Shown here: positions 34,207-64,000 of the stretch, one piece after another
Layout: the number at the start of each line of letters is the position of its first letter
Numbering within the stretch: position 1 is the stretch's first letter
Source of the DNA: Syntrophales bacterium
GTDB lineage: Bacteria; Desulfobacterota; Syntrophia; Syntrophales; PHBD01
Assembly (NCBI GenBank): GCA_963668175.1
Contig: OY764159.1
Span: 2,528,001 to 2,592,000 of the forward strand
DNA: 64,000 nt
Reading direction: 5' to 3'
Made by a program: the position numbers and the translations under genes
Notes under the pieces: model-generated
Databases searched by the model: none
Told to the model about the DNA's origin: nothing
What the model saw: only the letters and a program-made list of their open reading frames with translations

Positions 34207-34213
34207 TGTGGAC

Positions 34214-34300
34214 GACCCGTGGCAAGGACGGATCGTCATCCGCGACAGGGCCGCGTCGAATGCGGCAATCCGCTCTTCTTCACCAACTCCGACGTCTGGA
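34214..34300 (+). pseudogene. Degenerate copy C of the tupA 3' end
   Basis: GACCCGTGGCAAGG...TCGTCATCCGCGAC..GGCCGCG...CCGCTCTTCTTCACCAACTCCGACGTCTGG resembles tupA 20241-20327. Confidence 0.75.
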
Positions 34301-34405
34301 ACCGGGCGCAGAAGATAAGAGGCAGTTCATCCAACGGGCCGGGTGATCTTTATGCCGTTTCCCTGAAGCGGATATCGGGGACGCCGGTTGAAAGAACGAA
34401 ACGGC

Positions 34406-34434
34406 TTGACACGTGTCACGTGACACGTTATAAA
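34406..34434 (+). promoter_or_regulatory. higBA sigma-70 promoter with overlapping operator
   Basis: TTGACA-17 bp-TATAAA enclosing the perfect 18-bp palindrome ACGTGTCACGTGACACGT (34411-34428). Confidence 0.85.
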
Positions 34435-34440
34435 GGAAGC

Positions 34441-34725
34441 ATGATAAAGACCTTTTTCGACAAGCATACGAAGGATCTTTATGAAACCGGAAAATCGAAA
34501 AAGTTTCCGCCCGATCTTCTCAGAAGGGCCATACGCAGGCTTGAATATATCGATCTCGCCGCCGGTGTCGACGATCTTAAAATACCGCCGAGCAACCGCC
34601 TGCATCCTTTGAAGGGCGGCAGGGAAGGACAATTCGCGATTTCAATAAACGATCAATGGCGCATATGTTTCCGGTTCGTTGACGGCGATGCCTATGACGT
34701 CGAAATAACCGATTATCATTCGTGA
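34441..34725 (+). CDS. higB: HigB (RelE/ParE family) toxin
   Basis: MIKTF.DK.T, PPSNRLHPLKG.REGQFAISINDQWRICF, VEITDYH. Confidence 0.93.
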   Translation: MIKTFFDKHTKDLYETGKSKKFPPDLLRRAIRRLEYIDLAAGVDDLKIPPSNRLHPLKGGREGQFAISINDQWRICFRFVDGDAYDVEITDYHS

Positions 34726-34733
34726 GGTTAACT

Positions 34734-35048
34734 ATGAGCACGACAAATAGAATAAATCGCAGAATCAGACCGACCCACCCGGGGGAAATGCTGCGGGAGG
34801 ATTTTATGCCCGATTACGGGTTGAATGTGTCGGGCCTTGCCGAGGCGCTTGGGGTTTCCCGTCAGACAATCAACGAGTTGTTGCGGGAGCACAGGGCGCT
34901 TACGCCTTTAACGGCATTGCGCCTGAGCCGGCTGTTTGGAAACTCGCCGGAATTTTGGCTCAACGCGCAAAGAGCCGTCGATCTGTGGGATGCGCAAAAC
35001 AGTTACGGCAAAGAGATAAAGCGCATCCGGCCGCTGAAAGCCGCATAG
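34734..35048 (+). CDS. higA: HigA antitoxin (HTH)
   Basis: PTHPGEMLREDF, LAEALGVSRQTINE, ALRLSRLFGNSPEFWLNAQ. Confidence 0.93.
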   Translation: MSTTNRINRRIRPTHPGEMLREDFMPDYGLNVSGLAEALGVSRQTINELLREHRALTPLTALRLSRLFGNSPEFWLNAQRAVDLWDAQNSYGKEIKRIRPLKAA

Positions 35049-35052
35049 GTGT

Positions 35053-35251
35053 TTAAGCAGGCTGTTGAAAAACGCCCATCTGTCGCGTTGCGCTGCAAGC
35101 CTCGTCAATCGACATACTTCTTGTATGACTCATTCCTCGGCTTTTGCGCGCCTTACATCTGGACATTTTTGAACACCCCCTATGCAGGGGGCATGGCCTG
35201 CGCGCCCCCTGCATAGGGGGTTCAAAATCGAGTTTTTCAAAAAGCTGTTAA
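35053..35251 (+). repeat. MITE-like dispersed repeat, copy 2 (longest)
   Basis: TTAAGCAGGCTGTTGAAAAACGCCCATCTG...GTTCAAAATCGAGTTTTTCAAAAAGCTGTTAA imperfect terminal inverted repeats; internal CCCCC-N6-GGGGG hairpins. Confidence 0.8.
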
Positions 35252-35261
35252 AGTTTGTAAG

Positions 35262-35287
35262 CTTCCCGGATTCCGACGCCTGAATGA
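35262..35287 (+). repeat. Short degenerate copy D of the tupA 3' end
   Basis: CTTCCCGGATTCCGACGCCTGAATGA versus copy B CTTCCCGGACTCCGACGCGTGGGTGA. Confidence 0.5.
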
Positions 35288-35366
35288 TTCGGGGGCCGCC
35301 ATCTCCTGACTAGGGGATGGTAACACTGGAATTGAATAGAATATGAGATAATAAGCTTTATGATCT

Positions 35367-36380
35367 ATGATTGATAAAAAGAAAAGAAGGAATATGAAGA
35401 AAGTATCCAAGCAGTTTCCAGAACTGTTTCATTATACGAATCTGACTGCTTTTAAGAAGATTTATGAAACAAATATTTTCAGAGCGACACATTATAAGGA
35501 CCTGAATGATAGTTCCGAGTTTTCACAGTTCAGACTGAAAGTACATGAATTTATCCGACCGAAAATCCAGACATACTTGGCAAGAATACGGAGGCAAGAT
35601 GTTGAGATTGAGAGACAAATCTCTGAGCGAGGCGGCATCGATTCGGTGGCTGAAGAAAATGCAATAAGACATGTCGATACAATGCACGAACATACATTCA
35701 ATGAGCGAATGTATAAACAAACATTTGTTTGTTCTTTTTGCGGACATCTTATGCCGTCGTATGAAGCAAGTCACGGATTGTTAAGTCAATGGCGAGCGTA
35801 TGGAGTGAGCGACGGTGTCGTCATTGTGCTTGACACGGAGCGTGTTGAGAAAATGTTAGAGCGTGATTATTATGCCTTCCAAATTCAGATAAGTATGATG
35901 GGCGATGTTGTTTATGATGATAACAACAAGAGAATTAAAAAGGATTATGGAAACGTCTTTAAACATTTACCTAAGATAATCGAAATTGAATTTAACAAGC
36001 TCTGGTTTAGTAGAAGATCGGAAGTCGAAGAGCTATATGCAGACATGCATGATCATTTCCTTTTAGGTTCGGTTTTAGTTAAACATCGCGCATTTAAGGA
36101 AGAAAATGAACTCCGAATTGTTGTGGCTCCTAACACTGCGGAATCCTTCACTGCATACGACCCCAATAGTTCCAAAAAGAAGAAGGAAATAAGTTGGATA
36201 CCTAAAGATAATCGTGAAATCAGATACATTGAGATGTTTGGTAATGAACCTCTTCCAATCAAGCGTATAATCGTCGGACCTTCAAAGATACAAAACTTCA
36301 ATTATCAGACAGTCAGAGATATCGTTGGTGAAAATACGGACATCGAAATCTTAAAATCCGAAATTCCCTTCTTAGGCTGA
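35367..36380 (+). CDS. DUF2971 domain protein, AT-rich
   Basis: LFHYT, LNDSSE, FVCSFC, LLSQWRAYG, KHRAFKEENELR, IIVGPS. Confidence 0.88.
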   Translation: MIDKKKRRNMKKVSKQFPELFHYTNLTAFKKIYETNIFRATHYKDLNDSSEFSQFRLKVHEFIRPKIQTYLARIRRQDVEIERQISERGGIDSVAEENAIRHVDTMHEHTFNERMYKQTFVCSFCGHLMPSYEASHGLLSQWRAYGVSDGVVIVLDTERVEKMLERDYYAFQIQISMMGDVVYDDNNKRIKKDYGNVFKHLPKIIEIEFNKLWFSRRSEVEELYADMHDHFLLGSVLVKHRAFKEENELRIVVAPNTAESFTAYDPNSSKKKKEISWIPKDNREIRYIEMFGNEPLPIKRIIVGPSKIQNFNYQTVRDIVGENTDIEILKSEIPFLG

Positions 36381-40836: not shown

Positions 40837-41841
40837 CTAACGCCGCCCTTTGCCGGACAGCCGGTCGACCATGGCCTTCACCGCCTTCATCTGCAGGCCG
40901 GATTTCTGCGCAAAGTCGTAACGAAAAGTGTAGCCCCACCAGTCCCAGCATCCATTGACGGCCATGCTGCCCGTTTGCGGATACAGGACGACGATGTTGT
41001 TGGTATCCGCCCAACGGTTATAGCCGGTCTTTTCCGCAAACTCCTTGCCGACCGCGATCGCGTTCTGAAAACAGCCGTGGAGGGCGACGTGCAGCCTGCA
41101 GCGCGCCCGTGCCGTGCACGATTTCGGGATATAAAGCCATCCCGTTGCCGCCATGTCGAACCAGGAGACAAAGGGCGTCTGGTCGAATTCCATCAGCTTT
41201 CCGGCCGGCGTGCCGTCGTTGCGCCCGGCCAGATTGCCATACAGGTGCTTGAGTATGGCCCCGGCGAGGTCAAAGCCGCAATTGTTTATGTAAGGCGAGG
41301 CGGTGACGGCGCATTCCCCGCCGAAATCGTCGGTGATCATGGCGTGTCCGGCGGGTATATCGTTCTTGTAGACGATGTTCCCGGCCGGGACGAAGTTCCT
41401 GTAATAATCAAACAGGGCGTTCACGACGTAGGGCATGACGGTTGTGTCTTCCGTGCCGGAGAACAGGTAGACTTTCGACGATCTGAGATTGCCTACGGCG
41501 TCGATGGATTTGCGGGCAGCCCATTGTCTGGTTACATCCACGAGTGACTGCACCGGTATGACGTTGCTGCCGTCTTTCATGCAGCGTGTGACATTCAGAG
41601 GGTTGCCGTCGATGCAATAATACGGCCCGCCGGCGACGATCCCGGCGCCGCGCTTGAACGTGGACGAGTAGGCCACGTGAAGCTGCACGGCCATGAAGCC
41701 GCCGGAGGACAGGCCGGAGACGGTGACCCCGGAAGGATCGATGGCAAGCCTCGGCAACGGATCGGCCGACTGCGCCGTTGCACTCGCGGCGATAAACAGA
41801 AACGTAACGAACACACCGATCTTTTTAAAAGTGTTACGCAT
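40837..41841 (-). CDS. Extracellular PHB depolymerase family esterase
   Basis: Signal peptide, VSGLSSGGFMAVQ, AGGPYYC, CRLHVALHGC, YNRWADTN, GCWDWWGY. Confidence 0.9.
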   Translation of the reverse strand: MRNTFKKIGVFVTFLFIAASATAQSADPLPRLAIDPSGVTVSGLSSGGFMAVQLHVAYSSTFKRGAGIVAGGPYYCIDGNPLNVTRCMKDGSNVIPVQSLVDVTRQWAARKSIDAVGNLRSSKVYLFSGTEDTTVMPYVVNALFDYYRNFVPAGNIVYKNDIPAGHAMITDDFGGECAVTASPYINNCGFDLAGAILKHLYGNLAGRNDGTPAGKLMEFDQTPFVSWFDMAATGWLYIPKSCTARARCRLHVALHGCFQNAIAVGKEFAEKTGYNRWADTNNIVVLYPQTGSMAVNGCWDWWGYTFRYDFAQKSGLQMKAVKAMVDRLSGKGRR

Positions 41842-42223
41842 CTTGGCCTCCTCACCTGTTCTGTAGCGGAGGAAGTTCGGACTAAAAACGACGGCGACCG
41901 CCTTTAAAACCTCGGTTCGGTACAGGTCGATTTTCGCGGCGATGCAAGCGGATTTACGGGCGGATGAGCTGGAGGAGGAGATTGTGAATTCTGACTTTAA
42001 ATAGGATCTTTGTCAAGACGAAATATGAGCAAAATAAGTCGAAAAATACATGATTGTTCGCTAAAGGTTTGCGAAGGTGTGACGGGGTCGGGTCCGGGCT
42101 CGAATTTACGGATGAGGCCGGCAGAGCGCCGCCGCGGGGGCAGTGTGCCCGCCGGACGTTCGCAAGGCGGGAAAAAGGGACGGCCCTTACTGCGTCGCCG
42201 CGCGGAGAACCGTCCCGCCGGTG

Positions 42224-42700
42224 TTACAGGACGCAGTGCCTCAGGTTCGTGAGCTGGACATAGTGTCTTCGCTCCTCGGCGATGAGGTCGTCGATGGCCT
42301 TGTGGCGCGATTCGGGCACGAGGCGCTTGATGCTTTCGTAGTACTGGATCGAATCGAGCTCCCGCCGGGCGGCGAAGTCGATGGCCGAGCAGGCGTCCCT
42401 GACGGCCGCGAGGTCGGAGTCGATGGCGTTCTTGGTGAAGACGACGTTGTTGTCGATGTAGTTGCGCAGATACTGGGCGTACTCGCCCTGGTAGGACTCC
42501 TGCGGGATGTACTGCTCCATGCCGGCAAAGATCTTGTCGAGCTTTTCCTTATGCTTCATCTCTTCGTCGGCCAGTTCGAAGAAGAGGTCTTTCGCCTCGC
42601 TGTTCTGAACAAGCTGGATGGCGTATTTGTAGAAATGGGCGCCGTTTTCATGGATTCTCGCCGCAAAGGCGACGATTTCGCTCGCAGTAAAGGCGTTCAT
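42224..42700 (-). CDS. Ferritin-like/rubrerythrin family protein
   Basis: E.NG..FY, LADEEMKH, E.DSI.YY, EERRH. Confidence 0.88.
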   Translation of the reverse strand: MNAFTASEIVAFAARIHENGAHFYKYAIQLVQNSEAKDLFFELADEEMKHKEKLDKIFAGMEQYIPQESYQGEYAQYLRNYIDNNVVFTKNAIDSDLAAVRDACSAIDFAARRELDSIQYYESIKRLVPESRHKAIDDLIAEERRHYVQLTNLRHCVL

Positions 42701-42806
42701 GGCGTGCCTCCTTTGTACCGTCGATCGGTCGGGCCATGTCCGGTTACATGTTCCCTGAACCGTTATTTCCGTTTATCTGTTCCGCCCGGGTTTATCCGGG
42801 GGCTTC

Positions 42807-43010
42807 CTATTTTTTCCTGTCCTTCTTTTTCCAGGCCTGGACGGCGAAATAGACGATCAGGCAGACGACGATGAGGATGACGGTCCCCATGTACGGCGGG
42901 CCGGAACCGGCCGCGTCTGTTTTCCCGGACCAAAGGCTGCCGGGGCCGCAGCCCATGGCCGAAAGAGAAAGAACGGAAACGGTCAGTGCGCGCGCAAAGA
43001 GTCTCTTCAT
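42807..43010 (-). CDS. Small hypothetical lipoprotein/membrane protein
   Basis: MKRLFARALTVSVLSLSAMGC lipobox, C-terminal TM helix with basic tail, GAGGTG SD. Confidence 0.7.
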   Translation of the reverse strand: MKRLFARALTVSVLSLSAMGCGPGSLWSGKTDAAGSGPPYMGTVILIVVCLIVYFAVQAWKKKDRKK

Positions 43011-43054
43011 AGCTTTCACCTCGCCGAATGAGATATCAGTAACGTATGATTCTA

Positions 43055-43603
43055 TCATCTTTTCGGGTAATTCGTGAAGATGAAATCTCTGGCCTTCACG
43101 ATGGTGTGGCATTGGTGGCACTGCTGCGCAAAGTCCGGATTGTCGGCCGCCCATGGCGAAAAGGCGGATACTTTGGGGTCGTAGACGAAGCGCGCGTATC
43201 CCCAGCCGTTTGTGGCGGGAAAGCGCTTCGCATCCTTGATGATGTACTCGACCCGCCTCAACTCCCCCGGCTCCCACGCGGCGGGGAAGACGGGGCTCTG
43301 TATTTCGGCCCAGGCGATCTTCACGATCTTGACGCCGTCGGGGAAGGGCCGGCCGTTGCCTGGTATCCCGGATTTGTAGGCCGCGATCATCTCCGGGTTG
43401 CCGAGGATGGTCCGAAGCTCGCCGACATCCGTCCGGCGGCTGACGGCGATCACCTGCCAGGTCTCGTAACCCCGGATTTCGGAGAAGGCGAGCCCGTTCG
43501 GTTCCTTCAGTTCGTAACGGTCCTGCGCCGGGATGGCATTCCTGATCCACATGGCAAGAATGGCGACAAACACGACCGCGGCAAAGAATCCTGCTTTTCT
43601 CAT
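43055..43603 (-). CDS. Cytochrome P460/c'-beta family protein
   Basis: Signal peptide, PFPDG.KIVK, KDAKRF..TNGWGYA.F, C-terminal CHQCH, DFIFT. Confidence 0.9.
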   Translation of the reverse strand: MRKAGFFAAVVFVAILAMWIRNAIPAQDRYELKEPNGLAFSEIRGYETWQVIAVSRRTDVGELRTILGNPEMIAAYKSGIPGNGRPFPDGVKIVKIAWAEIQSPVFPAAWEPGELRRVEYIIKDAKRFPATNGWGYARFVYDPKVSAFSPWAADNPDFAQQCHQCHTIVKARDFIFTNYPKR

Positions 43604-43652
43604 GGTCCCGAGTTCCTTTCGTTGTCGATAAGGGTTGATGACCGTCCATCTC

Positions 43653-45821
43653 TCAATCCCGCAGGGCCTTGCCGATCCTTGCCAGGACCGTCTTCTGACG
43701 CTGCGACAGGGGCGCTTCCGCGGAAACGATGCGCCTGGCGACCGCCAGGGCGGTCCTGCGCTCTTCCGGCGTCGTAATCAGGCTCCCGAGCGACCGGAAG
43801 GCCGTGTCCGCATCCGCCTGTAATAAGCGCGACTGATCCCTGGCCATGTCGATAAAGGTCTGCTTGTCCAGTTTGCCGAAGCCCGCCCCCGCTTCCAGAA
43901 GCCTCTCGTCGCGCCAGAGGGCGTCGCGGTCGATGACATGGTCCGAATCCTCCAGGGCCATAACGATGCGCACGAGTCCTTCTTCAAACCCTCCCCGGGT
44001 CATGGCCTGGAGCCGGTAACGCTTGTCGAACGGGGTATCGATGCGTGCCTCCTCCCCTTTCGTTTTCTTTTGCGCCAGAGCCGGCCGCTCGATCCCGGGC
44101 GACAGGCCGGCGAGGGCCCGCTTCGTCCAGGGATTTTCGTAGAGGGCGAAGAAAAGGGCCTCCTCGGCGTGATCCCGGACGTCCTGATAGACGCCGCAGA
44201 GGGCGGCGATATTGTCCGAAGCGAATTTCTCCAGGGCGGAAAAGTAGTTATCCGCCGAAGCGGGGCGTCGGTTATGCTTCACCGCCGGAGCCAGGGCGGC
44301 GAAGACCGTCATGAAGGGATTGACGGTATCCGCAAAGACGTACTTGCTCACCCGGAGGGGATGGATCTGTTTCAGGAATGCCGCCGACGACTCGGTGGCA
44401 AACGTCCGGACCCAGGGGCCGACGAACGTGTTGTAGAGCCTGTCGTTGATCTCGGAGACGGCCGCAACCCGGGCGAAGTCCGCGTCCTCCTCCGCCATCT
44501 CCGTCTTGTCCTCGTTCAGGGCCATGAGATCGCTGATATCGCGTTCGACGAAGCGGACGTCGTAATCGCTCAATCCTTCCTTCTTCCCCTTGTCGACGAT
44601 CTCCATCTCAAAAAGGCCGGGCGGCAGGGCCTCGACCATGTCGATGCTCCTGATGATCTCCATGTGCTCCTTCTGCGCCGTCTTGGCCCCGACGAAGATG
44701 CCCAGGTGGCCGACGGTGGGATGCAGCATGTAGACGATTACCCTGCCTGCACGCCTGATCTCGTCGGTCGTGCGGTAGGCCTTGATGATCCAGTCCAGGG
44801 CCTGCTGGGGCGGTGTGATGTTGTCGCCCTCGGAGGCGAAGAGGATCATGGGCCGCTCGATATTCCTGAGGTCTAGGATCTTCTTCCTGTCGAGCGAAAG
44901 CTTCCCTCTCTCCAGCTTGTTGCCGATAAAGAGATTCTCCACGATGGCGTGCATCTCTTCCCGTGTCATTTCGGAATAGCCGTCCCACCATTTCTCGAAA
45001 GTGAGGTAGCGTTCCTCCTCGGTGTCCACGTGTGCATAGAGATCGTACTGCTTCGTCCAGAACGTGTTGCCGGGGTTGAGGCTTTCGAAGTTCTCCTCCA
45101 GCCAGGCGCCGTCGAAGCGGCCGTGGCCGAGGTCCGACAGAAACGAGACGAGCCAGGCGCCGCCGAGGAGCCCTCCGGCGTAACGCATGGGGTTCCTGCC
45201 CTGGACGCCGGCCCAGTAGGAGAGGGGCGAACCGTTCAGGACGAGCGGACCGGTCAGGTCGGGACGGTCGGCGCCGAGGAGTGCCACGGCCCAGCCGGCC
45301 TGGCAGTTGCCGATCACCGCCGGCTTTTCCGCATGGGGATGGCGCCTGGCGACCTCCTCGACGAAGCGGACCTCTGCCTGCTCGACATCCGCCACCGTCT
45401 GCCCCGGCACCGGCTCAGGATGGAAAAGGACGAAGTAAACCGGGTGGCCCTGCGCCAGGGCGTCGCCGATCTCAGAATCGCGCTTGGAGCCGCCGATGCC
45501 CGGTCCGTTTCCCGCCCGGGGGTCGATGACGACGATGGGCCGCCGGTTGGGATCGAGAGCGTCCGTGTTCCTCGGCAGGATGCGGGCCAGGTCGTGGTTC
45601 ACGGGACGCGGGAGGGTCCGGCCGTCCATGACGACTTCGTAGTCGAAGACAAGGACCGGCGGTTCTCCCTTCCTTATCGTGTCGAAATAGTTGTTCCCTC
45701 GCCTGCGTAGGATGTCGAGGAAAAGTATCCAGCGTTGCGAGGCATCGAACAGATAGGCGCACCCATCGGCCAGCGGATTTGCGGCGGCAGGCGTCTCCTG
45801 CGATTTCTCTTTTACGTTCAC
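43653..45821 (-). CDS. DUF3141 family PHA synthase-like alpha/beta hydrolase
   Basis: DPRAGNGPGIGG.K, GNCQAGW, GSPLSYWAG, NFE.LNP, FEKWW, GDNITPPQQAL.WI, GHLGIFV. Confidence 0.9.
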   Translation of the reverse strand: MNVKEKSQETPAAANPLADGCAYLFDASQRWILFLDILRRRGNNYFDTIRKGEPPVLVFDYEVVMDGRTLPRPVNHDLARILPRNTDALDPNRRPIVVIDPRAGNGPGIGGSKRDSEIGDALAQGHPVYFVLFHPEPVPGQTVADVEQAEVRFVEEVARRHPHAEKPAVIGNCQAGWAVALLGADRPDLTGPLVLNGSPLSYWAGVQGRNPMRYAGGLLGGAWLVSFLSDLGHGRFDGAWLEENFESLNPGNTFWTKQYDLYAHVDTEEERYLTFEKWWDGYSEMTREEMHAIVENLFIGNKLERGKLSLDRKKILDLRNIERPMILFASEGDNITPPQQALDWIIKAYRTTDEIRRAGRVIVYMLHPTVGHLGIFVGAKTAQKEHMEIIRSIDMVEALPPGLFEMEIVDKGKKEGLSDYDVRFVERDISDLMALNEDKTEMAEEDADFARVAAVSEINDRLYNTFVGPWVRTFATESSAAFLKQIHPLRVSKYVFADTVNPFMTVFAALAPAVKHNRRPASADNYFSALEKFASDNIAALCGVYQDVRDHAEEALFFALYENPWTKRALAGLSPGIERPALAQKKTKGEEARIDTPFDKRYRLQAMTRGGFEEGLVRIVMALEDSDHVIDRDALWRDERLLEAGAGFGKLDKQTFIDMARDQSRLLQADADTAFRSLGSLITTPEERRTALAVARRIVSAEAPLSQRQKTVLARIGKALRD

Positions 45822-54565: not shown

Positions 54566-55024
54566 ATGGCGTATTGGATGGTTTTGGCGGCATGGCTTTG
54601 CGCAGCCTGTTTAACCGGGACCGCCTGGGGCGCGGCCGTGGAGACGGGGCCGTTGACGGCCGCCGAAAAGAAGCTCTGCCGGGCCGTCGAGAAGGCCGAT
54701 GCCTTCTTCCACTGCGGCGGCCGCGTGAAGCGCCATTACGAGATCGCCTCCGATACCGGGGCGAAACTCCCCGTTCTCGTCGAGTTCGTCTACGAAAAGG
54801 AAGGCCCCCTCTATTTCGGCGAATATATTTCCTACGCGGCCTCCGTCGATCCGCTGACGTCCGTCGTCTCGTATACGTTCGACGCCGGGACGGCGCTTCG
54901 TGGCCGCGGGACAGCCATGGAAACGGAAAAGGGCGTCATCGTCGTGAGGGAAACGTGCGGCACATCGGGCTGTTCCGTGGAGGTTCTGCGGGACGGTAAA
55001 AGGCTTTACGGCGGGCAGAAATAA
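54566..55024 (+). CDS. Secreted hypothetical protein
   Basis: Signal peptide (AWG), CGTSGC motif. Confidence 0.75.
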   Translation: MAYWMVLAAWLCAACLTGTAWGAAVETGPLTAAEKKLCRAVEKADAFFHCGGRVKRHYEIASDTGAKLPVLVEFVYEKEGPLYFGEYISYAASVDPLTSVVSYTFDAGTALRGRGTAMETEKGVIVVRETCGTSGCSVEVLRDGKRLYGGQK

Positions 55025-55123
55025 GGCGCGCGCAAACAGAAAAAGCGCCTCTCCGGCGCCTGTCTTGAAATGCGTGTCGATCTTAAGTCTGTATCCGGAC
55101 TGCCCCCGGATGCATGAAGGACA

Positions 55124-55411
55124 TTATCCGTTCCCGGCCTCTCGCAGGGCGGACAGTTTCTTTTCCCTGGGCAATCGCTTGATCCTGTATTCCAGGCGGA
55201 AGGCCTCCGCCTTCGGCATCGGCCGGCTGGTGTCGATCAGGGTGACGGGCAGGCGGGCCCGCGTGAACCGGGAGGCGTCGCCGCGGTTGTGGGCAGCGAT
55301 CCTTTTCGGGAGGTCGTTCGTTACGCCCGTGTAGATTTTCCCGTCGGAACAGCGGAGGAGGTATACAAGCCAGGAGCCGCTCGCGGACAAGGCATCCCGG
55401 CCGCCGGCCAT
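55124..55411 (-). CDS. GIY-YIG nuclease (YhbQ-like)
   Basis: VYLLRCSDG.IYTGVTND..KRI..HN.G, E.RIK. Confidence 0.9.
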   Translation of the reverse strand: MAGGRDALSASGSWLVYLLRCSDGKIYTGVTNDLPKRIAAHNRGDASRFTRARLPVTLIDTSRPMPKAEAFRLEYRIKRLPREKKLSALREAGNG

Positions 55412-55412
55412 T

Positions 55413-55688
55413 TTAATGCCTGACACGCAGCGAGTTGGAGGGTTTGAAGGTCACGACCTTCCTGGCCGTGATGGTCATCGCTTCCCCCGTGCGCGGATTC
55501 CGGCCCCTTCTGGCCCGCTTCTCCCTCACCGACCACCTGCCGAATCCCGAAATCATGACCTTCTCTCCCTTGGCAAGCTCTTCCTTGACGATGGCAAAGA
55601 GGCTCTCGACAATGGCGGCGCATTCCTTCTTGGGGATGTCCAGTTCCGTGTAGAGCGAGTCAATTAGATCTATTTTGGTCAGCGGCAT
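55413..55688 (-). CDS. ihfA: Integration host factor alpha-like subunit
   Basis: LTK.DL, ISGFG, GRNPRTGE, ARKVVTFKPS. Confidence 0.85.
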   Translation of the reverse strand: MPLTKIDLIDSLYTELDIPKKECAAIVESLFAIVKEELAKGEKVMISGFGRWSVREKRARRGRNPRTGEAMTITARKVVTFKPSNSLRVRH

Positions 55689-56890
55689 CGATATTCTCCT
55701 TCGTTTGTTTTCCTTTTAGTATTTTTTGCCCCTGCAGTGTTACGGGGCTTTGCATCTCTTTTACGCGCGCAAGGACACTCCTTCGGCGGATGGCGCCCGT
55801 CTTTCTACTATTCGGAAAAACGCGGCCGAAACTTGAGGCTAAAAATAGAGCCGCAAGCGGATGGACCGGATGCCCCGACAGTGTGGACATGTCATCCGAT
55901 TGTACTTCGATTCTGGCAATTGGAAACCTACGACTTCTTGCTTTCTTGCACCGCAGGCTTGACTGCGGCCTAAAGTGCCCGCGGCCGAACGAGAGTGAGC
56001 AGGAGATCAATTTATAAGAACGCGATATTTAAATATTCTTTTGAACTGATTTGCCGTCCTTGTCAAGAAAAATCAAAACGGAATGTTATACGAATGATGG
56101 CAACCGCCGCCGACCCCATGATGTTGTGTCCGCTAATATTTATACAACAATATTTTGTTATGCTCACCGGGGCGGTTCGGCAGGGGATGGAACGCCCGAC
56201 GGCGCCTCCGGGCGGGAAAAGCGTCGCGGCGCGGCGAATTTCCCGTGTTGCTCCCCTGCGCGGCGCGCAGAATGCGGATATCGCGATATCGAACCGTGTA
56301 AAATCAAAACGGTATTGCCATGGCGCAGGGATTCATTCGAAATTCAGCGCGGGCTGCGGCCTCCATGGCGGCGTGAACGTGTTCAATCCTGCCGGTGCGC
56401 GAAAAGGGCCGTTCGTTTCCCCGGCGTCCGCTGCCGCTCTGCTTGGCGGATTACAGCCGCCGGCAAGTCCGGCTTCCGGAATATCCCGAATATGCTTATA
56501 CCGGGGGCACGGAGCATCGGCGATTTGTTGGCCGGCGTCGTCCCCGGCTGATGCCCTGTTCCGCTTGCGGCTTTTGCGTTACGGCGGCAATGGACCCGCA
56601 TACGGGAGTGTCCTTCCGTACCATCCATCCGGTCCGCGCATGAAACGGTCCTGTTTCCGGGAAGGCCCTTTGCCGTTATGTTCCTTCCGGCCGATTCGGG
56701 CAGTCGCGGCGGTCACACGGCGCGTTAAGTCCTTTAAACAGCGATGTTATTGCGATGCATAACAAGGGCGGCAGGAACGCCTCGCGACGGGTTTCAGCCG
56801 CCGGGGTTCGCCGTCCGGCCGCGGCCGAAGACGAAGATAACGATTTGAAAAATGCTCATCCGGCACCCATCGCTCCGTTTTTGCGTGACC

Positions 56891-59773
56891 CTAATGTGCC
56901 GCAGGCAGCGCAAAGAAGAAGGACGCCCCTTCTCCCTCCTTGCCTTCCGCCCAAACGCGGCCGCCGTGGCGGTGAACGATGCGCTGGACGATTGCCAGCC
57001 CGACCCCCGTCCCCTCGTATTCCTCGGCATGATGAAGACGCTGGAACACATCGAACAGTTTGTCATGATAAGACATATCGAAGCCGATGCCGTTATCCCT
57101 GACGTAATAAACGATTTCATTCCGATCGGAGTAGCACCCCGCTTCGATCCGCGCGTCGGCTCTGTCCCTTGTGAATTTCACGGCGTTTTCGAGCAGGTTG
57201 ACATATACCTGTTTGATGAGCGCCCGGTCGCCGTAAGCGCCGTCGAGGTTATGGACCGTCAGGTGGAGGGACCTGGCGGGATTGGCTTCCTGAATTTCTT
57301 TCCACGAATCCTGTATCAGGGAATTCATGTCGAGCATCGTCCTGGCAATATCCTTACGGCTCAGCCGCGAAAATGCTAGGAGGTCTTCGATGAGCTGTCC
57401 CATCATCCGTACGCTGTCCCTGATGACGTTGAATTTTCTGACGGTGTCTTCATCGAGCGTGTCGCCGTGCTTCTTGACGATCATGCGCGAGAAACCGTCG
57501 ATGGCGCGCAGCGGGGCGCGCAGATCGTGGGAGACGGAGTAGCTGAAGCTCTCGAGCTCCCTGTTGGCCTCTTCGAGCTGGGCCTTTCGTCCCATCAGTT
57601 CCCCGAGGAGGGAAGCGTTTTGAAGGGCAAGGGAAACCGTCGAGGCAAGTTTCTGTGCAAAATCTTTGTGATAATCGCGAAAGGCGTAGATATGGCTGTG
57701 ATGGTTGAGGAAAATGACGCCGACGGTCTGATCTCCGTCGAAAAGGGGGATGACCGCCTCGGATCGTATTCCCCATTTCTTCATGTAATCCCTGTTGACC
57801 CTGTCGTCGTTCGCCGCATCGTCTATGAAGACGGGCTGCCTTGTTTCGATGGCCAGCAAGGCATGCGGCTCCTCTCTGTCTTCCATCCGCATGCCGACGA
57901 CGCTCTCGGGAAAACCCAACGCGTAACTGACTATCCATTGGTCGTCCTTCTTCAGGGAGACGGCCGCGGTCTGGCATTCCATGGCCAGGGCGGCGCTGGA
58001 TAGCGCTCTTTTCAATACCTCTCCGGCTTCGGAGGTCGAATGGACAAGTTTGTTGATGTCGTTTAATGCCTCGCTCAGAATTTCCGTCTGCTTGCGTTCG
58101 GTGATGTCGCGCGCGGCACCGAACCATTCGGCGATGTCGCCTTTCGCGTCGAGAATCGGTATGGCGCGCGAGAAAGTCCAGCCCAAGGTACTGTCCGCCA
58201 TCACGACGCGGTGTTCGAGTTCGAAGATGGTCTTGCCCCGGATGGCGGTTTCGATGGCCGCCGTCACGCGCGGCCGGTCCTCCGGGTGGATGTATTTCTC
58301 CAGCCACGTCCTGTCGGGCTCCTCCGTGTCGGCAAGGAAGTCCCGCCCGCGCAGCCGCCGCATTTCCTTCCAATCGGGGCTCATCTGATACACGACGTCC
58401 GAGGTCGCTGTCACGAAGGCTCGGAAGCGCTCTTCGCTTTTCCAGAGCTTTTCCTCTGCCCGCTTGCGCTCCGTGATGTCGAAAAAAGTGAAAATGATGT
58501 GGGGTGTGTCGTCGATATCGATCAACTCCGCCGAATGATTACACAAAAGCACGTCGCCCGTCTTGGTGCGAAGCCGGAACTCCTGGTTCTCGCTTCTTCC
58601 CTCGGTCGTCACCTTTTGCAGCATGCGCTCCCGGTCCGCGAGGTCGTTCCACACGCCTAATTCCACTACCGAACGTCCGATGAATTCGTCCCGGCCGAAG
58701 CCGAGGCACTTGAGCATCGCCTCGTTCGCTTCAATGACGAGGCCGTCGGCCAGGCGGCTCAATCCCACGCAGGCTGGATTGGATTGGAACGTCTTGATAT
58801 ATTTTTCCTCCGCCTTCCGAAGTTCCTGGGTTTTCCGGAACTCGTACTCTCGCCTGAAAAACAGCAGGCCCAGGGAAAGAAGGAGGAATATACCGAGGCC
58901 GGTAATCCCGCTCAGGATGAAATAACCGTATAAAGGCTTCAGGACGGCGCTTCTTTTCTGCCCCACGATGACGGACCAGCCGATTTCCCTGATCGGCGCA
59001 ATGGATATATAGGATAGGCCCTGGGTCTCCATATCCGTCATTTCCGTGTCTGCCGTTTCTCCTGCGAGCGCTTTCTTGAGGCTGCCGCTGTCGGGCCATG
59101 TCGTGATTTTTTTCTCGTAAGGGAATGCGCTGCTGAATAAGATGTTTCCTTCCTGGTCGAGGAGGCTGATCGTCTTCCCCGGTTCTATCGGGTTCGATCG
59201 AATGAGGGATGCAAAGAACGAGGCGCGCTGGGCTGCGCCGAGGATGCCGACGATGTTGCCCCGGCCGTCGGTCACAGGAATGACGATTGCGAAGGCAGGA
59301 CCCTTTCTCAAAACAACCGGTCGGCATAAGGATGAAACGTGACGTTTCCAATCCCGGCTCAGCCCTTTGTACCAGTCGCTGGAAGCCAGGTTCTTCCCGT
59401 AGGTGCTCCTGTCCATGGGGTAGATTGCCCAAAGTATCCCGCGCTTGTCGGTAATAAAGAGAGCATCCAGTTCGGGATGATCCCTTCTCAATGTCTGCAG
59501 GTGGCCGACAACTTCATCAAAATCTCTCTCCTTCATGGCAATCTTAAGGAGGGGGCGCTGAGCGTAGGATTCGAGGATACCGATCGTTGCCCTCTGGTGT
59601 TCGTCGATGAGCGAAGAGACAAGCTTCGCACTCAATCGGTTATCCCGGACTGTATTGGTTATTTCATGGCGGTAATGGCTGTGCATGAAGCCGAGCGTAA
59701 CGAGAACGGCAATGACGAACATGGCGGCGATGACCGCTGCATAGAATTTCCTTCCTTCGAACAAACGGTGCAT
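56891..59773 (-). CDS. Sensor histidine kinase (dCache-PAS-PAS-GAF-HisKA-HATPase)
   Basis: Two TM helices, DITERK twice, FSYSVSHDLRAPLR, NLLENAVKFT, DNGIGF, FQRLH, GTGVGL. Confidence 0.95.
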   Translation of the reverse strand: MHRLFEGRKFYAAVIAAMFVIAVLVTLGFMHSHYRHEITNTVRDNRLSAKLVSSLIDEHQRATIGILESYAQRPLLKIAMKERDFDEVVGHLQTLRRDHPELDALFITDKRGILWAIYPMDRSTYGKNLASSDWYKGLSRDWKRHVSSLCRPVVLRKGPAFAIVIPVTDGRGNIVGILGAAQRASFFASLIRSNPIEPGKTISLLDQEGNILFSSAFPYEKKITTWPDSGSLKKALAGETADTEMTDMETQGLSYISIAPIREIGWSVIVGQKRSAVLKPLYGYFILSGITGLGIFLLLSLGLLFFRREYEFRKTQELRKAEEKYIKTFQSNPACVGLSRLADGLVIEANEAMLKCLGFGRDEFIGRSVVELGVWNDLADRERMLQKVTTEGRSENQEFRLRTKTGDVLLCNHSAELIDIDDTPHIIFTFFDITERKRAEEKLWKSEERFRAFVTATSDVVYQMSPDWKEMRRLRGRDFLADTEEPDRTWLEKYIHPEDRPRVTAAIETAIRGKTIFELEHRVVMADSTLGWTFSRAIPILDAKGDIAEWFGAARDITERKQTEILSEALNDINKLVHSTSEAGEVLKRALSSAALAMECQTAAVSLKKDDQWIVSYALGFPESVVGMRMEDREEPHALLAIETRQPVFIDDAANDDRVNRDYMKKWGIRSEAVIPLFDGDQTVGVIFLNHHSHIYAFRDYHKDFAQKLASTVSLALQNASLLGELMGRKAQLEEANRELESFSYSVSHDLRAPLRAIDGFSRMIVKKHGDTLDEDTVRKFNVIRDSVRMMGQLIEDLLAFSRLSRKDIARTMLDMNSLIQDSWKEIQEANPARSLHLTVHNLDGAYGDRALIKQVYVNLLENAVKFTRDRADARIEAGCYSDRNEIVYYVRDNGIGFDMSYHDKLFDVFQRLHHAEEYEGTGVGLAIVQRIVHRHGGRVWAEGKEGEGASFFFALPAAH

Positions 59774-60114
59774 TCGTTCACCTTTACCCGCTCTTCGTTG
59801 GCGGCTGCTTGGCGGAAGGGGATGCCTGAAAAAGGGAACCCCGAATGAAAGGTATCCGTTTGCGTTCTTACGAACACCGGAGAACGATCCCCGCCTCCGC
59901 ATGAAGACGCGCCGCGACGGCTTCTTCCTGGAGGACGACCGGTCGTCTTCTCAAGCAAAAAAAGGACTGAAGCTTAAATTATTTTACATAAAGGAAAAGG
60001 CACACGAAGACCATAAGGTTTTGCCTGAATTGCCTGTTCGAAATACCTTAGATGCTTTTTGTCGGCCGACGTAGTGGATACAGCGGGCCGGGCCTGTCCG
60101 GACCGGAAGCTGTT

Positions 60115-60696
60115 CTACGGCTGCGAATCGTCCGCCCGGGTGTTCATCCGGCGCTCGTCGAGCAGCTGCTTCAGCAGCTTGACCTGCTCCTCCTGGATGG
60201 CGAGAAGCTCACGCCATTGCTCTTCCCTGAGCATATCCACTTTTTCGTGAAGCCCCATGATCTCCAACTCCGCCTTCAGGTTGACCTCGTAGTCGTGCTC
60301 CGCGGAGAGCCGGTCCTTGAAGGCCTGCCGGTTCTGGGACATCATGATGATCGGCGCCTGGATGGCCGCCAGCATCGACAGGACCAGGTTGAGGAGGATG
60401 TAAGGATAGGGGTCGAACGAGCTTCCGAGCCTGACCAGGATCAGCGAATTCAGGATGATCCAGGATACCATGACGCCCCCAAAGATGCCGATGAAGGTCC
60501 AGGAGCCGCCGAAGGAAGCGACGGCGTCGGCCGTCTTCTGGCCGAGGGTCAGGCGCTCGGGCAGGACCCGGTTGACGTTTTCGGAGATGGGGGTCCTGTG
60601 CGTGATATGGTGGGCTACGTGCTTCTGCTGATCCGTCAGGGTATCGAACTTGGAGCGGAAGAGCTTCTCCGCCTTTTCGCGGGCCTTCTGATCCAC
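60115..60696 (-). CDS. DUF1003 domain membrane protein
   Basis: FGGSWTFI, FDPYPYILLNL.LS, QAPIIMMSQNRQ, DYEVNLKAELEI. Confidence 0.93.
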   Translation of the reverse strand: MDQKAREKAEKLFRSKFDTLTDQQKHVAHHITHRTPISENVNRVLPERLTLGQKTADAVASFGGSWTFIGIFGGVMVSWIILNSLILVRLGSSFDPYPYILLNLVLSMLAAIQAPIIMMSQNRQAFKDRLSAEHDYEVNLKAELEIMGLHEKVDMLREEQWRELLAIQEEQVKLLKQLLDERRMNTRADDSQP

Positions 60697-61004
60697 GGTG
60701 CCGTCCTCCTTGCTGTCGGCATTGCCGGGGCCGCCGTTTCACTCGCGACCGTTACGGAATGCCTTCTTCCTGGAACCAGTCTATCACAGTGTCCGCGGCT
60801 TTGTCACCCCCGCCGTACGGTTCCGGTCCGCAAAGGATTCCGCACTATCCGCCGGGAAATCAATGCCGGGGCTGGTTCCTCCTGCAGATTTACGGATATG
60901 CCCGGCAACCGGACTTCCGGACCGAACCGAGACGGCAGACGCATCCCGCCCATAACGCGATGCGGCAGACGGCCGATGCAGCCGCGATCCCGGGCGGCCG
61001 GACG

Positions 61005-61301
61005 TTACGCCTTGGGCGTTTCGGGGCTCAACCTTTTCTTCAGCTTGGCCGAGGATTTGAAGGTGACGACTTTCCTGGCCCCGATGGCGATGGATTCGAG
61101 CGTCTTTAAGTTCCGGCCCGTTTTCGCCCTCCGGGTGCGGACGGACCATTTACCGAAGCCCGAGATGAGGACAATGTTGCCCTGGACCAGTTCGTCCTTG
61201 ATGGTTTCAAGAAGGCTTTCCAGGATGGCCGAACATTTTTCCTTGGGAAGGCCGACTTCCGTGTTGATCGTTTCGATAAGGTCTTTCTTTGTCAGCGCCA
61301 T
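61005..61301 (-). CDS. Second IHF-alpha-like protein (divergent arm)
   Basis: MALTKKDL, ISGFGKW, GRNLKTL, ARKVVTFK. Confidence 0.85.
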   Translation of the reverse strand: MALTKKDLIETINTEVGLPKEKCSAILESLLETIKDELVQGNIVLISGFGKWSVRTRRAKTGRNLKTLESIAIGARKVVTFKSSAKLKKRLSPETPKA

Positions 61302-61637
61302 GATCGTTTTCCTTGAATGAATGGTTTGTTGTACGGGGAAACCGCCGCCTCCCGCCCATGTCCCTGCGGACAGCGTCCGCGATCGCAGATACCGCGCCGG
61401 GAAAGGCCTCATCGTGTCGATGTCATGCCGGGTTCGGCGTCTTCCATGAGGGAATCTTTCTGTCTGAAACGGCCGGGAATGACCCCGGCGGGAATTCCGA
61501 AAAAAGAGAGAGACGGCGCGCGATTCGGTGCAGGCGGCGTTCCCTCCGGTTATTGTTTCTTGAAGCTGCGGCATCGGCCCGCATCCTTCGATGAGGCGTC
61601 CGCGTCGCTCAATACTTTCGGGTTGCCGGTTAGTGAT

Positions 61638-61967
61638 TTACGAGAAAGAGGGGGGTGCTCGTTTGCGGGATACGCGGCGATTGGTGAAGTCTGCCTGCCT
61701 TTTGATCTCGTCCGGGCAAGCGCGTATAAAGAAAGGCTGCCGGCCGTAAGCGGCGGCATCGTGCGATATGCCCTGGTGGCACACGGTCTTGGGGCTGTGT
61801 TCCCCGCCGTCGTCTTCCTGTCCGCCGCTGCTCTGCATGACGGCGACGCCGATGTTCATGGGACGCCAGAAATCAGGAACGTCGTCCATCCCTGCGATCA
61901 GGCACAGAAACAGGATAGCGACGCATAAGAACCCTTTACGGAAAACGGCGCTTTTCAGGCTAAACAT
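61638..61967 (-). CDS. Small exported hypothetical protein with C-terminal RAPP motif
   Basis: Hydrophobic N-terminal segment, ends KRAPPSFS*; AGGGG SD. Confidence 0.55.
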   Translation of the reverse strand: MFSLKSAVFRKGFLCVAILFLCLIAGMDDVPDFWRPMNIGVAVMQSSGGQEDDGGEHSPKTVCHQGISHDAAAYGRQPFFIRACPDEIKRQADFTNRRVSRKRAPPSFS

Positions 61968-62168
61968 AAAGACGGTGTAACCCCTTTGGAACCTTAAACT
62001 TGTGTAACTTCCTATAACGCAGTCCGTGGGGCGTGTCAACGGATTTGTGTTCCTTCCTTTCCTCCATGCGGCGGTTCAAAACGGGTAAGGCGGAGACGTT
62101 GGGAGGTGCCGCCTGTTTCGTCGATGCCGCAAACCGGAACGACCGGCCCCGCCGTAAGTCCGGACCGG

Positions 62169-63587
62169 CTAGAGCCAGATGAATTTATTCTGTCCCGTGG
62201 CGCATTCGCTGCACATCCTGACGGGCGCAGGGTATCCGTAATTGGGCGCCTTGGCGCGTACCTGGCTGCAAGTGTCGCAGAAGATCCTCCCACAGACACG
62301 GCAGTGATGGCGCCTTGTCACGATCCCGAAGGTTGTCTTGCATTTATGGCAGGCCTTGGCGGCTTCATCCGGCACCCAGTGGGGGTTGTCGATCTCTTTC
62401 GAGCTTTTGACGGCCTGGGCCGGGGGGATTTTGACCGGCCCGGCGATATGGACCCACGGGACGGTGCCCGGCAGGAAGCAGGTGTTGAACTCCGTCATGC
62501 TCATGCCCGTCGTGCCGCCGTGGGCGTGGAACGACTGGACGAACCCCCGCGTTTCCGGCTGATGCGCGAAGGCGATATAATTCAGGGCGGGATAACCCGT
62601 CTTGGGATCGACGTTCTTCTGCACCTGCGTGATGAAGGCGTGGTTGCTTCCCCCGCCGCCGTCGCAGTTGAAGACGTAACCGTCGGGCATGGCCACGACC
62701 GATTCGCTCTTGATGCTCATGCCCGCCGACGGGACGAGATGGATCTGGACCCTCGGCTGCCCGACCGCCGGCGGGGAACGCCACAGCCGCCGCATGGCGT
62801 GATCGAGGCAGACCTCCATCCCGAAACGGATGCCGTCGACGGAGAACATGCCCAGCCCCTCGTAGCGCAGGCGCTGCGCCTCCTTTCCGCTGCCGCGGTT
62901 AAGGTTGCCTCCCTTGCCGGCCTTCAGGTGTTCGACGTCTTCGTGCATGAGCTTGTCGCCCACCTTGTCCCGCGGCTCGATCAGGATCTCCGTCACCTTG
63001 CCGGTATTGTCCTTGTTTTCCGAGCTTTTGCTCAGGAAGTCGATGCCGGACTTGAACTCCTTCATGACGATGCACGATCCGGACTCGCCCGTGTTGCCCT
63101 TCTGCACGACGACGATGTTGTAAACTTCAAGGCCGCGGTCGCGGGCGATGGACGGTCCCTGCGGGCGGTCCATGGCGTGCTTCTCGGAGGATGCGATGCA
63201 GCTCCCGAAGACGAAGAGCCAGTCCTTGAAAATGCTTGGGCTGACGAAGCTCCTAAGGCGCTCGACGATATTCAAGTAGGTTTCGAGGGAGTATGCGCCC
63301 TTCGTGCCGCGGAAGTAGAACTCGGGCGCCATGAAGAGCTTGAGGCAGTTGGCGCTCTTCTGGACGGCCAGCGATTCGTAGGCTCGGCGGATGGCGTCTT
63401 CCATGAGGGAACAGCGAAGCTGGATGTCCTTATCGTCGTCGGCGATGCCCGTGTATTGCTGCAGGCGCTCGTAGACGGGAAGGAGGGTGTTTAAGTCCGC
63501 GATTTCGAAGCCCTTGAGCGCACCCTTCACCTGCTTCGGAAACGTATCCAGCCTGTAGGCGATGAATTGGATATTTTGGTAGGCCAT
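62169..63587 (-). CDS. Nitrilase/CN-hydrolase-like protein fused to a C-terminal FYVE zinc finger
   Basis: APEFYF, KEFKS, EVCLDH putative E-K-C triad; WVPD...CHKC...RRHHCRVC...CDTC...RMCSEC; GGAGG SD. Confidence 0.9.
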   Translation of the reverse strand: MAYQNIQFIAYRLDTFPKQVKGALKGFEIADLNTLLPVYERLQQYTGIADDDKDIQLRCSLMEDAIRRAYESLAVQKSANCLKLFMAPEFYFRGTKGAYSLETYLNIVERLRSFVSPSIFKDWLFVFGSCIASSEKHAMDRPQGPSIARDRGLEVYNIVVVQKGNTGESGSCIVMKEFKSGIDFLSKSSENKDNTGKVTEILIEPRDKVGDKLMHEDVEHLKAGKGGNLNRGSGKEAQRLRYEGLGMFSVDGIRFGMEVCLDHAMRRLWRSPPAVGQPRVQIHLVPSAGMSIKSESVVAMPDGYVFNCDGGGGSNHAFITQVQKNVDPKTGYPALNYIAFAHQPETRGFVQSFHAHGGTTGMSMTEFNTCFLPGTVPWVHIAGPVKIPPAQAVKSSKEIDNPHWVPDEAAKACHKCKTTFGIVTRRHHCRVCGRIFCDTCSQVRAKAPNYGYPAPVRMCSECATGQNKFIWL

Positions 63588-63767
63588 GGTATCCTCCGGA
63601 AACGGTTTTTCGTGCGGGACCCGCCGCCGGCGTTGCGGCCCGGGGCCGGGAAAGGGAGTCGGCGCGTAACGTCCTGCCGTTATTCGTTAAAAACGGTACA
63701 AGTATAAGGCAAGGCCGTCACGGCTGTCAAAGGAAATCTTGCAGCGTTGCCGGCGGCCGGCCACCGG

Positions 63768-64000
63768 TTACGCCTTCCGGACGAGGTCGATGACGGCGAT
63801 TTCCGGCGGGGCCAGGATGCGTACTGGCGGCCCCCACGTCCCCGCGCCCCGGCTGACGTAGAGGTGCGACCGGGGCGGAAGCGCGAAATAGCCGGCATTG
63901 AACGGGTAGACCAGGCGGGTGACCAGGCCGAAGGGGAAAAGCTGTCCCTTGTGGGTATGGCCGGAAAGCTGGAGGTCGAAAAGACCCTCTGCGCCCCGCT
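63768..64000 (-). CDS. Metallophosphoesterase (YkuE-like), partial C-terminus
   Basis: Manual translation: FDLQLSGHTHKGQLFPF...LYVSRGAGTWGPPVRILAPPEIAVIDL. Confidence 0.92.
   Translation of the reverse strand, partial: RGAEGLFDLQLSGHTHKGQLFPFGLVTRLVYPFNAGYFALPPRSHLYVSRGAGTWGPPVRILAPPEIAVIDLVRKA

Follow-up and report, generated by a model that had tools for sequence, protein, structure and literature searches.

A gene on the reverse strand of a 64,000-nucleotide stretch of DNA from a Syntrophales bacterium (GenBank assembly GCA_963668175.1, contig OY764159.1, positions 2,528,001 to 2,592,000; the whole stretch is called the window) encodes a protein, P0001, in which an N-terminal enzyme domain of predicted nitrilase-like fold is joined to a C-terminal FYVE zinc finger of the eukaryotic type. 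In the open reading frame (ORF) list the coding sequence of this two-domain protein occupies 62169..63587 on the minus strand, stop codon included, starts with ATG and specifies 472 amino acids. By each sequence and fold criterion tested the finger belongs fully to the FYVE family, and the gene is a genuine bacterial one rather than a chimera. For its action, we tentatively propose that P0001 is a Cys-Glu-Lys amidase or acyl-transferase, which after export would be docked by its FYVE finger onto membranes of a eukaryotic cell that carry phosphatidylinositol 3-phosphate (PI3P). We consider this reading quite possible and somewhat short of probable; catalysis, PI3P binding, export and the eukaryotic target are what we infer.

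FYVE fingers are a hallmark of eukaryotic endosomal identity and are overwhelmingly eukaryotic, and those that bind PI3P are marked by the signatures WxxD, R(R/K)HHCR and RVC. In P0001 the finger comprises residues 403-464 (62196..62381, minus strand) and is matched by the Pfam FYVE model PF01363 with 73.7 bits vs a cut-off of 27.8 (E 1.3e-20). The signatures appear as WVPD (residues 404-407, the codon of W404 starting at nt 62378), RRHHCR (425-430) and RMC (457-459), the last with Met replacing the Val of RVC, while the zinc-ligand cysteines form four CxxC pairs, C413/C416, C429/C432, C437/C440 and C459/C462. Fourteen solved FYVE domains were matched at E<=1e-3, the best being human ZFYVE28/Lst2 (66 bits), followed by RUFY1, Hrs, WDFY3, Leishmania LM5-1, EEA1 and Vps27. 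By Foldseek the finger was superposed on those of Hrs (3zyq), LM5-1 (1z2q), RUFY1 (2yw8) and EEA1 (1joc), with root-mean-square deviations of 1.2-2.7 Å (1.2-2.5 Å over 57-63 columns) and identities of 36-47%. A model that read only the letters of the DNA had claimed a complete eukaryote-type FYVE finger with all eight cysteines and the motifs; this original prediction was borne out by the translation, by Foldseek and by the Pfam hidden Markov model (HMM), whose score is far above the cut-off and far beyond chance. P0001 thus shares the Pfam family, fold, eight cysteines and motifs of Hrs/Vps27, EEA1, RUFY1, ZFYVE28/Lst2 and WDFY3, and its finger is ~44-56% identical to individual eukaryotic FYVE domains. 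Unlike the eukaryotic FYVE proteins, it is bacterial and has the finger C-terminal to a bacterial enzyme domain.

The N-terminal domain (N-domain; residues 1-395, 62403..63587, minus strand) is predicted, by fold only, to be a divergent member of the nitrilase (C-N hydrolase) superfamily. The AlphaFold2 (AF2) model, made from 120 homologues, has a mean predicted local distance difference test score (pLDDT) of 91.2 and a predicted template-modelling score (pTM) of 0.92. Foldseek comparison with the PDB gave 156 matches at E<=0.001, and the listed matches that are not FYVE domains are nitrilase-superfamily enzymes without exception. The best of them is the Nesterenkonia amidase 3hkx (E 1.5e-6, probability 1.00, target-normalised template-modelling (TM) score 0.55); the others include H. 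pylori AmiF, Nit2, vanin-1, D-carbamoylase, N-carbamoylputrescine amidohydrolase and the glutaminase domain of NAD synthetase. In a protein-language-model atlas, the top neighbour cluster carries the automatic name 'CN hydrolase domain-containing protein' (score 0.94). In common with the nitrilase and C-N hydrolase amidases, P0001 has the four-layer alpha-beta-beta-alpha fold (Foldseek), and its conserved candidate residues Glu, Lys and Cys follow the same order at strand ends. It differs from them in having no detectable sequence similarity, with target-normalised TM scores of 0.42-0.56 to the listed stand-alone amidases, and in three additions seen in the model: a ~45-residue N-terminal beta extension of three strands (5-44), a ~65-residue insertion between the Lys and the Cys, which is specific to the family and located at about residues 186-250, and an extra C-terminal beta unit.

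All motifs quoted in the original prediction were recovered in the translation of P0001, those of the N-domain being APEFYF (87-92), KEFKS (176-180) and EVCLDH (258-263). Among 120 aligned sequences, K176 and D183, which lies seven residues after K176, are the only invariant columns, and E89, C260, D262 and H263 are at least 90% conserved. The candidate catalytic base is Glu89 of the APEF motif, directly after strand 81-86 (codon 63321..63323); the candidate catalytic Lys is Lys176 at the end of strand 171-175 (codon 63060..63062); and the candidate nucleophile is Cys260 of EVCLDH, between strand 253-257 and helix 261-264 (codon 62808..62810), all on the minus strand. In the model the three residues stand at strand ends in the order E..K..C, with Cys260 at a strand-Cys-helix elbow, which we take to be the Glu, Lys and nucleophile-elbow Cys arrangement of the nitrilase superfamily; Asp183 presumably occupies the position of the second Glu of the superfamily. 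As read from the model, the putative E89-K176-C260 catalytic triad is well supported but not proven.

Homologues were collected by a search with P0001, which gave 202 matches at E<=1e-3 with 120 clusters listed, and by a scan of GTDB species genomes, which gave 257 confirmed N-domain matches; 80 loci were examined, and the genome of the window lies outside those 80. Judged by sequence, the N-domain is a broad, unnamed bacterial family, found in Myxococcota, Pseudomonadota, Acidobacteriota, Thermodesulfobacteriota, Cyanobacteriota, Planctomycetota, Lentisphaerota, Verrucomicrobiota and others. For the most part the members stand alone, are ~350-450 aa long and lack a Pfam match, and no Sec-like signal was seen by eye among the N-termini inspected. 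The label PF28597.1 is precomputed on a few members and is absent from the Pfam copy used, so a recent Pfam entry covering part of the family may exist. Tandem duplicates of the family gene were observed in two Planctomycetota metagenome-assembled genomes (MAGs), one of them Ca. Kuenenia (L016:6943-9122 and L025:7998-10018), and in the tree each paralogue groups with its counterpart in the other genome.

The N-domain is followed by FYVE in 11 of the 120 listed clusters (P0001-P0009, P0019 and P0047). P0002-P0004 come from other contigs and are 73-77% identical to P0001 in the alignment. In the GTDB loci the full-length fusion was found in a Desulfobacula MAG (L001, 49% identity) and in two Syntrophaceae MAGs (L002 and L006, 34-35%), so that all three carriers among the 80 loci are Thermodesulfobacteriota; from the trees, P0005 is the Desulfobacula protein of L001. 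The 560-aa P0019 carries two tandem FYVE fingers (Pfam 101.5 bits, two stretches) and branches away from the other FYVE-bearing members. A further metagenomic protein of 886 aa, P0271, consists of the N-domain, a FYVE finger at 388-447 and a C-terminal ADP-ribosyltransferase (ART) at 732-847 of the Enterotoxin_a/Scabin-like, cholera-toxin type (Pfam, 28.8 bits vs a cut-off of 21). Elsewhere in the family the fusion partner is Lipase_3 (P0059), Amidase_6 (P0285), a fucose lectin of fungal type (P0021) or a chromo/Tudor-like module (P0113), and P0272-P0286 have long N-terminal Ig-like, CarboxypepD_reg or zinc-ribbon regions.

Alignment of the 11 FYVE-bearing members, which are 35-77% identical overall, revealed that seven of the eight FYVE cysteines are invariant and one nearly so. 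R(R/K)HHCR is kept in nine of them and WxxD in ten, the exceptions being P0005 and P0006. Because the exact lipid-binding signature is kept across lineages only 35-42% identical overall, it argues that the ligand, and not merely a zinc scaffold, is probably under selection.

FYVE being overwhelmingly eukaryotic, an artefact has to be considered, either eukaryotic contamination or a chimeric assembly in which a eukaryotic FYVE exon was joined to a bacterial gene. The GC content at third codon positions (GC3) is 0.85 in the gene, 0.87 in the N-domain and somewhat lower, 0.75, in the FYVE part, but the last value is still inside the range of 0.71-0.90 of 12 Pfam-supported window genes; the codon style of the gene is like that of its neighbours, as had been claimed. 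The ORF is continuous on a contig of 4.57 Mb and is preceded by a Shine-Dalgarno sequence and a promoter-like element. The Shine-Dalgarno GGAGG, which the original prediction had named, was read directly at 63593..63597 (minus strand), 5 nt before the ATG. The sigma-70-like promoter TTGACA-18 nt-TATACT (63701..63730, minus strand; 11 of 12 matches) lies ~114 nt 5' of the ATG and is a consensus match only, the scan of 61500-64000 having found one site vs a shuffle mean of 0.7. The neighbours of the gene are bacterial and encode a dCache-PAS-GAF histidine kinase, a DUF1003 protein and an HU/IHF-like protein; more distant window genes encode aldehyde:ferredoxin oxidoreductase, DapF, 3-hydroxyacyl-CoA dehydrogenase and DUF3141. 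Against an artefact also speaks the same junction in P0002-P0004 and, more distantly, in P0005-P0009, P0019, P0047 and P0271, as well as in the MAGs L001, L002 and L006. Since the FYVE and N-domain trees are concordant for the P0001-4/P0005/P0006 clade with support of 99-100, the two parts evolved together. A chimeric assembly, one of the events that would have undone the original prediction, is excluded by the fusion in independent contigs and three MAGs, and contamination or misjoining of any kind is hardly credible.

The source of the finger was sought by an exhaustive HMMER search with its 77-aa region against 1.84 billion representatives. It returned 14,939 matches at E<=1e-3, and none of the 150 best carries the N-domain. 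Pfam was applied to 30 of these 150, and the recognisable partners are all eukaryote-type, with architectures such as VHS-FYVE-Hrs_helical, C2-myotubularin-FYVE, myosin TH1-FYVE, RhoGEF-PH-FYVE and RabGAP/TBC-FYVE. The nearest relatives outside the family have at most 56% identity to the P0001 finger. A word-index search with the FYVE region alone, too insensitive a method, found P0001-P0003 only. In a FYVE tree of 67 columns, only four of 165 branches were starred, and the placement of the family fingers needs four changes; the approximately unbiased (AU) test of a single clade for the 13 FYVE rows gave p = 0.054, at which one origin is neither supported nor rejected. Judged by the architectures of its nearest relatives, the finger of P0001 is probably eukaryote-derived.

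Clustering of 3,858 neighbouring ORFs from the 80 loci revealed no universal neighbour of the family gene and none common to more than 11 loci, and tblastn with eight candidate neighbours for an immunity-like partner found only close-relative matches. In 11 of the 80 loci, a homologue of a core type VI secretion system (T6SS) component lies within 8 kb of the family gene (tblastn with 11 verified T6SS proteins). Pfam confirmed such genes around L047, L054, L060, L063, L066, L071 and L075, namely TssA/B/C, Hcp, TagJ/ImpE, TssF/G/K, ClpV, Fha, VgrG and Rhs. The hosts are Crenothrix (L047), Ca. Sulfotelmatobacter (L054), Bryobacteraceae (L060), Verrucomicrobiia (L063), Methylomonas (L066) and Roseateles (L075). 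VgrG and an Rhs protein adjoin the family gene in L066, and VgrG adjoins it in L060 and L071.

The genes of this sister subfamily (L047:7653-8936, L054:7623-9224, L060:7362-8954, L063:6609-9104, L066:7584-8960, L071:8001-8864 and L075:7662-9062) are placed inside T6SS core clusters, either immediately ahead of TssB or in the interval from TssF/TssG/ClpV to VgrG. They come from Acidobacteriota, Verrucomicrobiota, Gammaproteobacteria and Betaproteobacteria. In most cases the ORF begins ~100-200 codons 5' of the matched part, in L063 far more, and Pfam found no match in six T6SS-linked ORFs, N-terminal extensions included. Possibly the sister subfamily is a T6SS effector or accessory protein not described before.

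Other settings were also observed. In a Methylococcaceae MAG (L009), a protein with eCIS_core (PF13699) and DUF5636 is encoded at 11999-13489, ~3 kb downstream of the family member, and is followed by a ClpB/ClpV-like AAA+ gene. In L007, L008, L012, L018 and L023 (e.g. L018:2979-11796), the family gene comes after two to three small homologous ORFs (~125-270 aa) and a gene for a ~970-aa protein; the ORF directly upstream has a phage-tail-collar domain (Pfam, L018 only), and a family-2 glycosyltransferase follows in L007, L008, L012 and L018 (Pfam, L018 only). In both Syntrophaceae MAGs the next gene downstream of the FYVE-bearing one encodes a ~598-aa protein (L006:7595-9385 and L002:8937-10733, 83% identical), for which Pfam, NCBIfam and PADLOC gave no match; it matches only L016, weakly, and nothing in the window. 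A role in anti-phage defence is unsupported, PADLOC giving no match for 12 proteins.

On the proposal put forward at the outset, P0001 would be a leaderless two-module bacterial protein. Its N-terminus is polar with no signal peptide by eye, and in the AF2 model it begins with a beta strand from residue 5 (pLDDT 95). Cys260 would act as the nucleophile with Glu89 and Lys176, probably with Asp183 as second acidic residue in the modelled site, and the N-domain would act on a non-peptide amide bond, by cleavage or transfer, by way of a thioester intermediate. The FYVE finger, to judge from its signatures, would dock the enzyme on PI3P-rich membranes such as those of early endosomes, phagosomes and autophagosomes. 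Because PI3P-rich membranes occur in eukaryotes, the action would most likely take place inside a eukaryotic cell, for instance a grazing or host protist. Export would use a route encoded outside the window, for which a contractile injection system of the T6SS or extracellular (eCIS) type is, by analogy, the best candidate. The original prediction had already suggested an amidase or deamidase effector aimed at endosomes or phagosomes, and we find this partly supported: indirect support comes from the ART toxin module of the relative P0271 and from the sister subfamily embedded in T6SS clusters.

A broader version of this proposal would make the N-domain an unrecognised, phylum-spanning family of nitrilase-fold effectors exported by contractile injection machines. 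Among the sulfate-reducing and syntrophic Thermodesulfobacteriota, one lineage would have captured a eukaryotic FYVE finger and once also an ADP-ribosyltransferase. The enzyme would thereby find its way to phagosomes of anaerobic protists, which PI3P marks, and would either disarm them or turn them to use. We regard this broader version as speculative and rather unlikely.

A number of results weigh against the effector proposal. The nitrilase-fold claim of the original prediction held for the fold and for the conserved Glu, Lys and Cys, and failed in the HMM test: Pfam on P0001 gave no CN_hydrolase (PF00795) match at E<=1. No NCBIfam model matched P0001 either. A PDB search with the 120-sequence profile found no nitrilase, only a chance match to an aldolase (E 0.9), and one with P0038, a protein named 'predicted amidohydrolase' by the Joint Genome Institute (JGI), gave only repeat-protein noise; because these searches found no nitrilase, the link of the N-domain to the superfamily is one of fold. 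Two of the 11 family fingers have lost the basic motif, and the P0001 gene is set among housekeeping genes (HU/IHF-like, DUF1003 and sensor kinase). Pfam on 50 ORFs revealed no secretion-system gene in the 64-kb window, and tblastn with the 11 T6SS proteins found no homologue there, only ~0.4 kb upstream of P0001 being inside the window. No delivery or adaptor domain (PAAR, MIX or others) was found in P0001 by Pfam, which detected only FYVE. A family tree of 100 rows (quick LG+G4) has nine of the ten T6SS-labelled rows in one half and all 13 FYVE rows in the other; these labels differ from the list of 11 loci in that for L036 and L040 the label comes only from BLAST clustering, and L017, L029 and L070 are later additions. 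Because the two sets occupy opposite halves, the T6SS link is a property of the sister subfamily at ~30% identity and is not simply transferable to the FYVE-bearing members. For the Syntrophaceae loci that carry FYVE, a T6SS link was weighed as well and downgraded, and these loci are not counted as T6SS-linked: the AAA+ protein beside the gene scores 1127 bits as ClpB vs 768 as ClpV, and the 'TssM-like' (IcmF-like) neighbour reaches 43 bits vs a cut-off of 388.

The main rival is an intracellular role, in which FYVE would tether the amidase to the bacterium's own membrane, with an inositol phospholipid of the bacterium or some other anionic lipid as its ligand; the enzyme would serve lipid, polyamine or envelope metabolism. 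A phosphatidylinositol-phosphate intermediate of bacterial phosphatidylinositol synthesis is a candidate ligand of this kind. Such a role would agree with the lack of a signal peptide (by eye) and of secretion genes in the window, with an own sigma-70-like promoter among housekeeping genes and with fully host-adapted codon usage. It would also agree with the family at large, most members being stand-alone and free of toxin context, with 69 of the 80 loci having no T6SS homologue nearby, and with the failure of clustering and tblastn to find a conserved immunity-like partner. The exact eukaryotic PI3P signature in nine of the 11 members is, however, less readily accounted for, and an offensive protein would be a better match for the ART fusion of P0271 and for those to lipase and lectin. 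Moreover, we know of no inositol lipids in Thermodesulfobacteriota, which weighs against the idea, and we judge an intracellular role doubtful, though a serious contender. Alternatively, P0001 could be an antibacterial toxin passed between bacteria, for example by a T6SS, with FYVE as a generic zinc finger or membrane anchor in the prey. The VgrG and Rhs genes beside the L066 gene, VgrG beside the L060 and L071 genes and the T6SS contexts in 11 of 80 loci are what would be expected of it. Neither clustering nor tblastn with the eight neighbours, however, revealed a conserved adjacent immunity-like gene, the window gene has no such partner, and the selection on a eukaryote-specific lipid-binding signature would be left unexplained; we hold this alternative to be improbable.

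Around the gene itself, a terminator scan found none and an Rfam search of 55000-64000 gave no match; a tRNA scan found none in the 64-kb window. The ORF at 62106..63494 on the plus strand (462 aa) runs antisense to P0001 and was set aside as a GC-rich shadow frame because the homology, Pfam and fold evidence is all on the minus strand; no separate search was made of it. Elsewhere in the window, a stretch at 33506-36377 (also seen at 34001-36000) has a GC content of 0.47 vs about 0.60 and encodes a 177-aa AbfB protein (arabinofuranosidase-B type, carbohydrate-binding) and a DUF2971 protein of GC3 0.38, and the stretch is possibly a small acquired island. At 40840-45821 a DUF3141 protein (722 aa, 782 bits) is encoded near a protein with a weak match to esterases of the polyhydroxybutyrate (PHB)-depolymerase type, which suggests polyhydroxyalkanoate metabolism. 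The aldehyde:ferredoxin oxidoreductase gene at 15207-16940 fits an anaerobe, and an open frame of 862 aa at 1-2586 (minus strand, 50% GC) runs past the window start and has no Pfam match at E<=1e-5.

Two things known before would be joined in P0001, the combination of an enzyme with a module that targets a host lipid and the bacterial capture of a eukaryotic domain. Effectors of Legionella and other intracellular pathogens with type IV (T4SS) or type III (T3SS) secretion systems home to PI3P on host vacuoles and are not known to use a FYVE fold for it. The logic of P0001, an enzyme module with a putative PI3P-binding module, would be the same, whereas P0001 has a genuine FYVE finger, comes from a free-living or syntrophic anaerobe and has no secretion system in the window. 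With T6SS cargo effectors and polymorphic toxins the family shares a sister subfamily that lies amid core T6SS genes next to VgrG and Rhs, and, as in polymorphic toxins, its N-domain is fused modularly to ART, lipase and lectin. Unlike T6SS cargo effectors, P0001 has no PAAR or MIX domain, no conserved immunity gene and no T6SS nearby in the window. Bacterial FYVE proteins as such have been recorded: PMC9324892 mentions ~40 of them 'of unknown function', and five bacterial examples in its Table S1 have FYVE alone, VHS-FYVE, FYVE-PI3/4-kinase or UBA-FYVE. The nitrilase-like fusion is not among these Table S1 architectures, in which an N-domain with no Pfam model would appear as plain 'FYVE', so that the entries with FYVE alone may include a family member. 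A term search of a comparative genomics study of FYVE and PX domains (PMC2837644) found no mention of bacteria or prokaryotes. Full-text literature searches found no description of a nitrilase-like/FYVE fusion or of a FYVE-bearing T6SS effector; an architecture already widespread and characterised, which would have counted against the original prediction, is thus not what the searched literature holds.

Should the proposed action be true, P0001 would be a natural, ready-made probe and effector for PI3P membranes. It would also provide a handle on an unnamed enzyme family that occurs inside the T6SS clusters of methanotrophs, Acidobacteriota, Verrucomicrobiota and Myxococcota. The history of the protein would then be a clean capture of a domain from a eukaryote by a bacterium, followed by shuffling of FYVE, ART, lipase and lectin on a common catalytic scaffold. 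Interaction between anaerobes and protists is known ecologically, and to our knowledge it has almost no molecular players; P0001 would add genetic evidence of direct engagement between protists and anaerobes that reduce sulfate or live as syntrophs. If the enzyme indeed homes to the phagosome, 'free-living' anaerobes would actively manipulate their eukaryotic predators or hosts.

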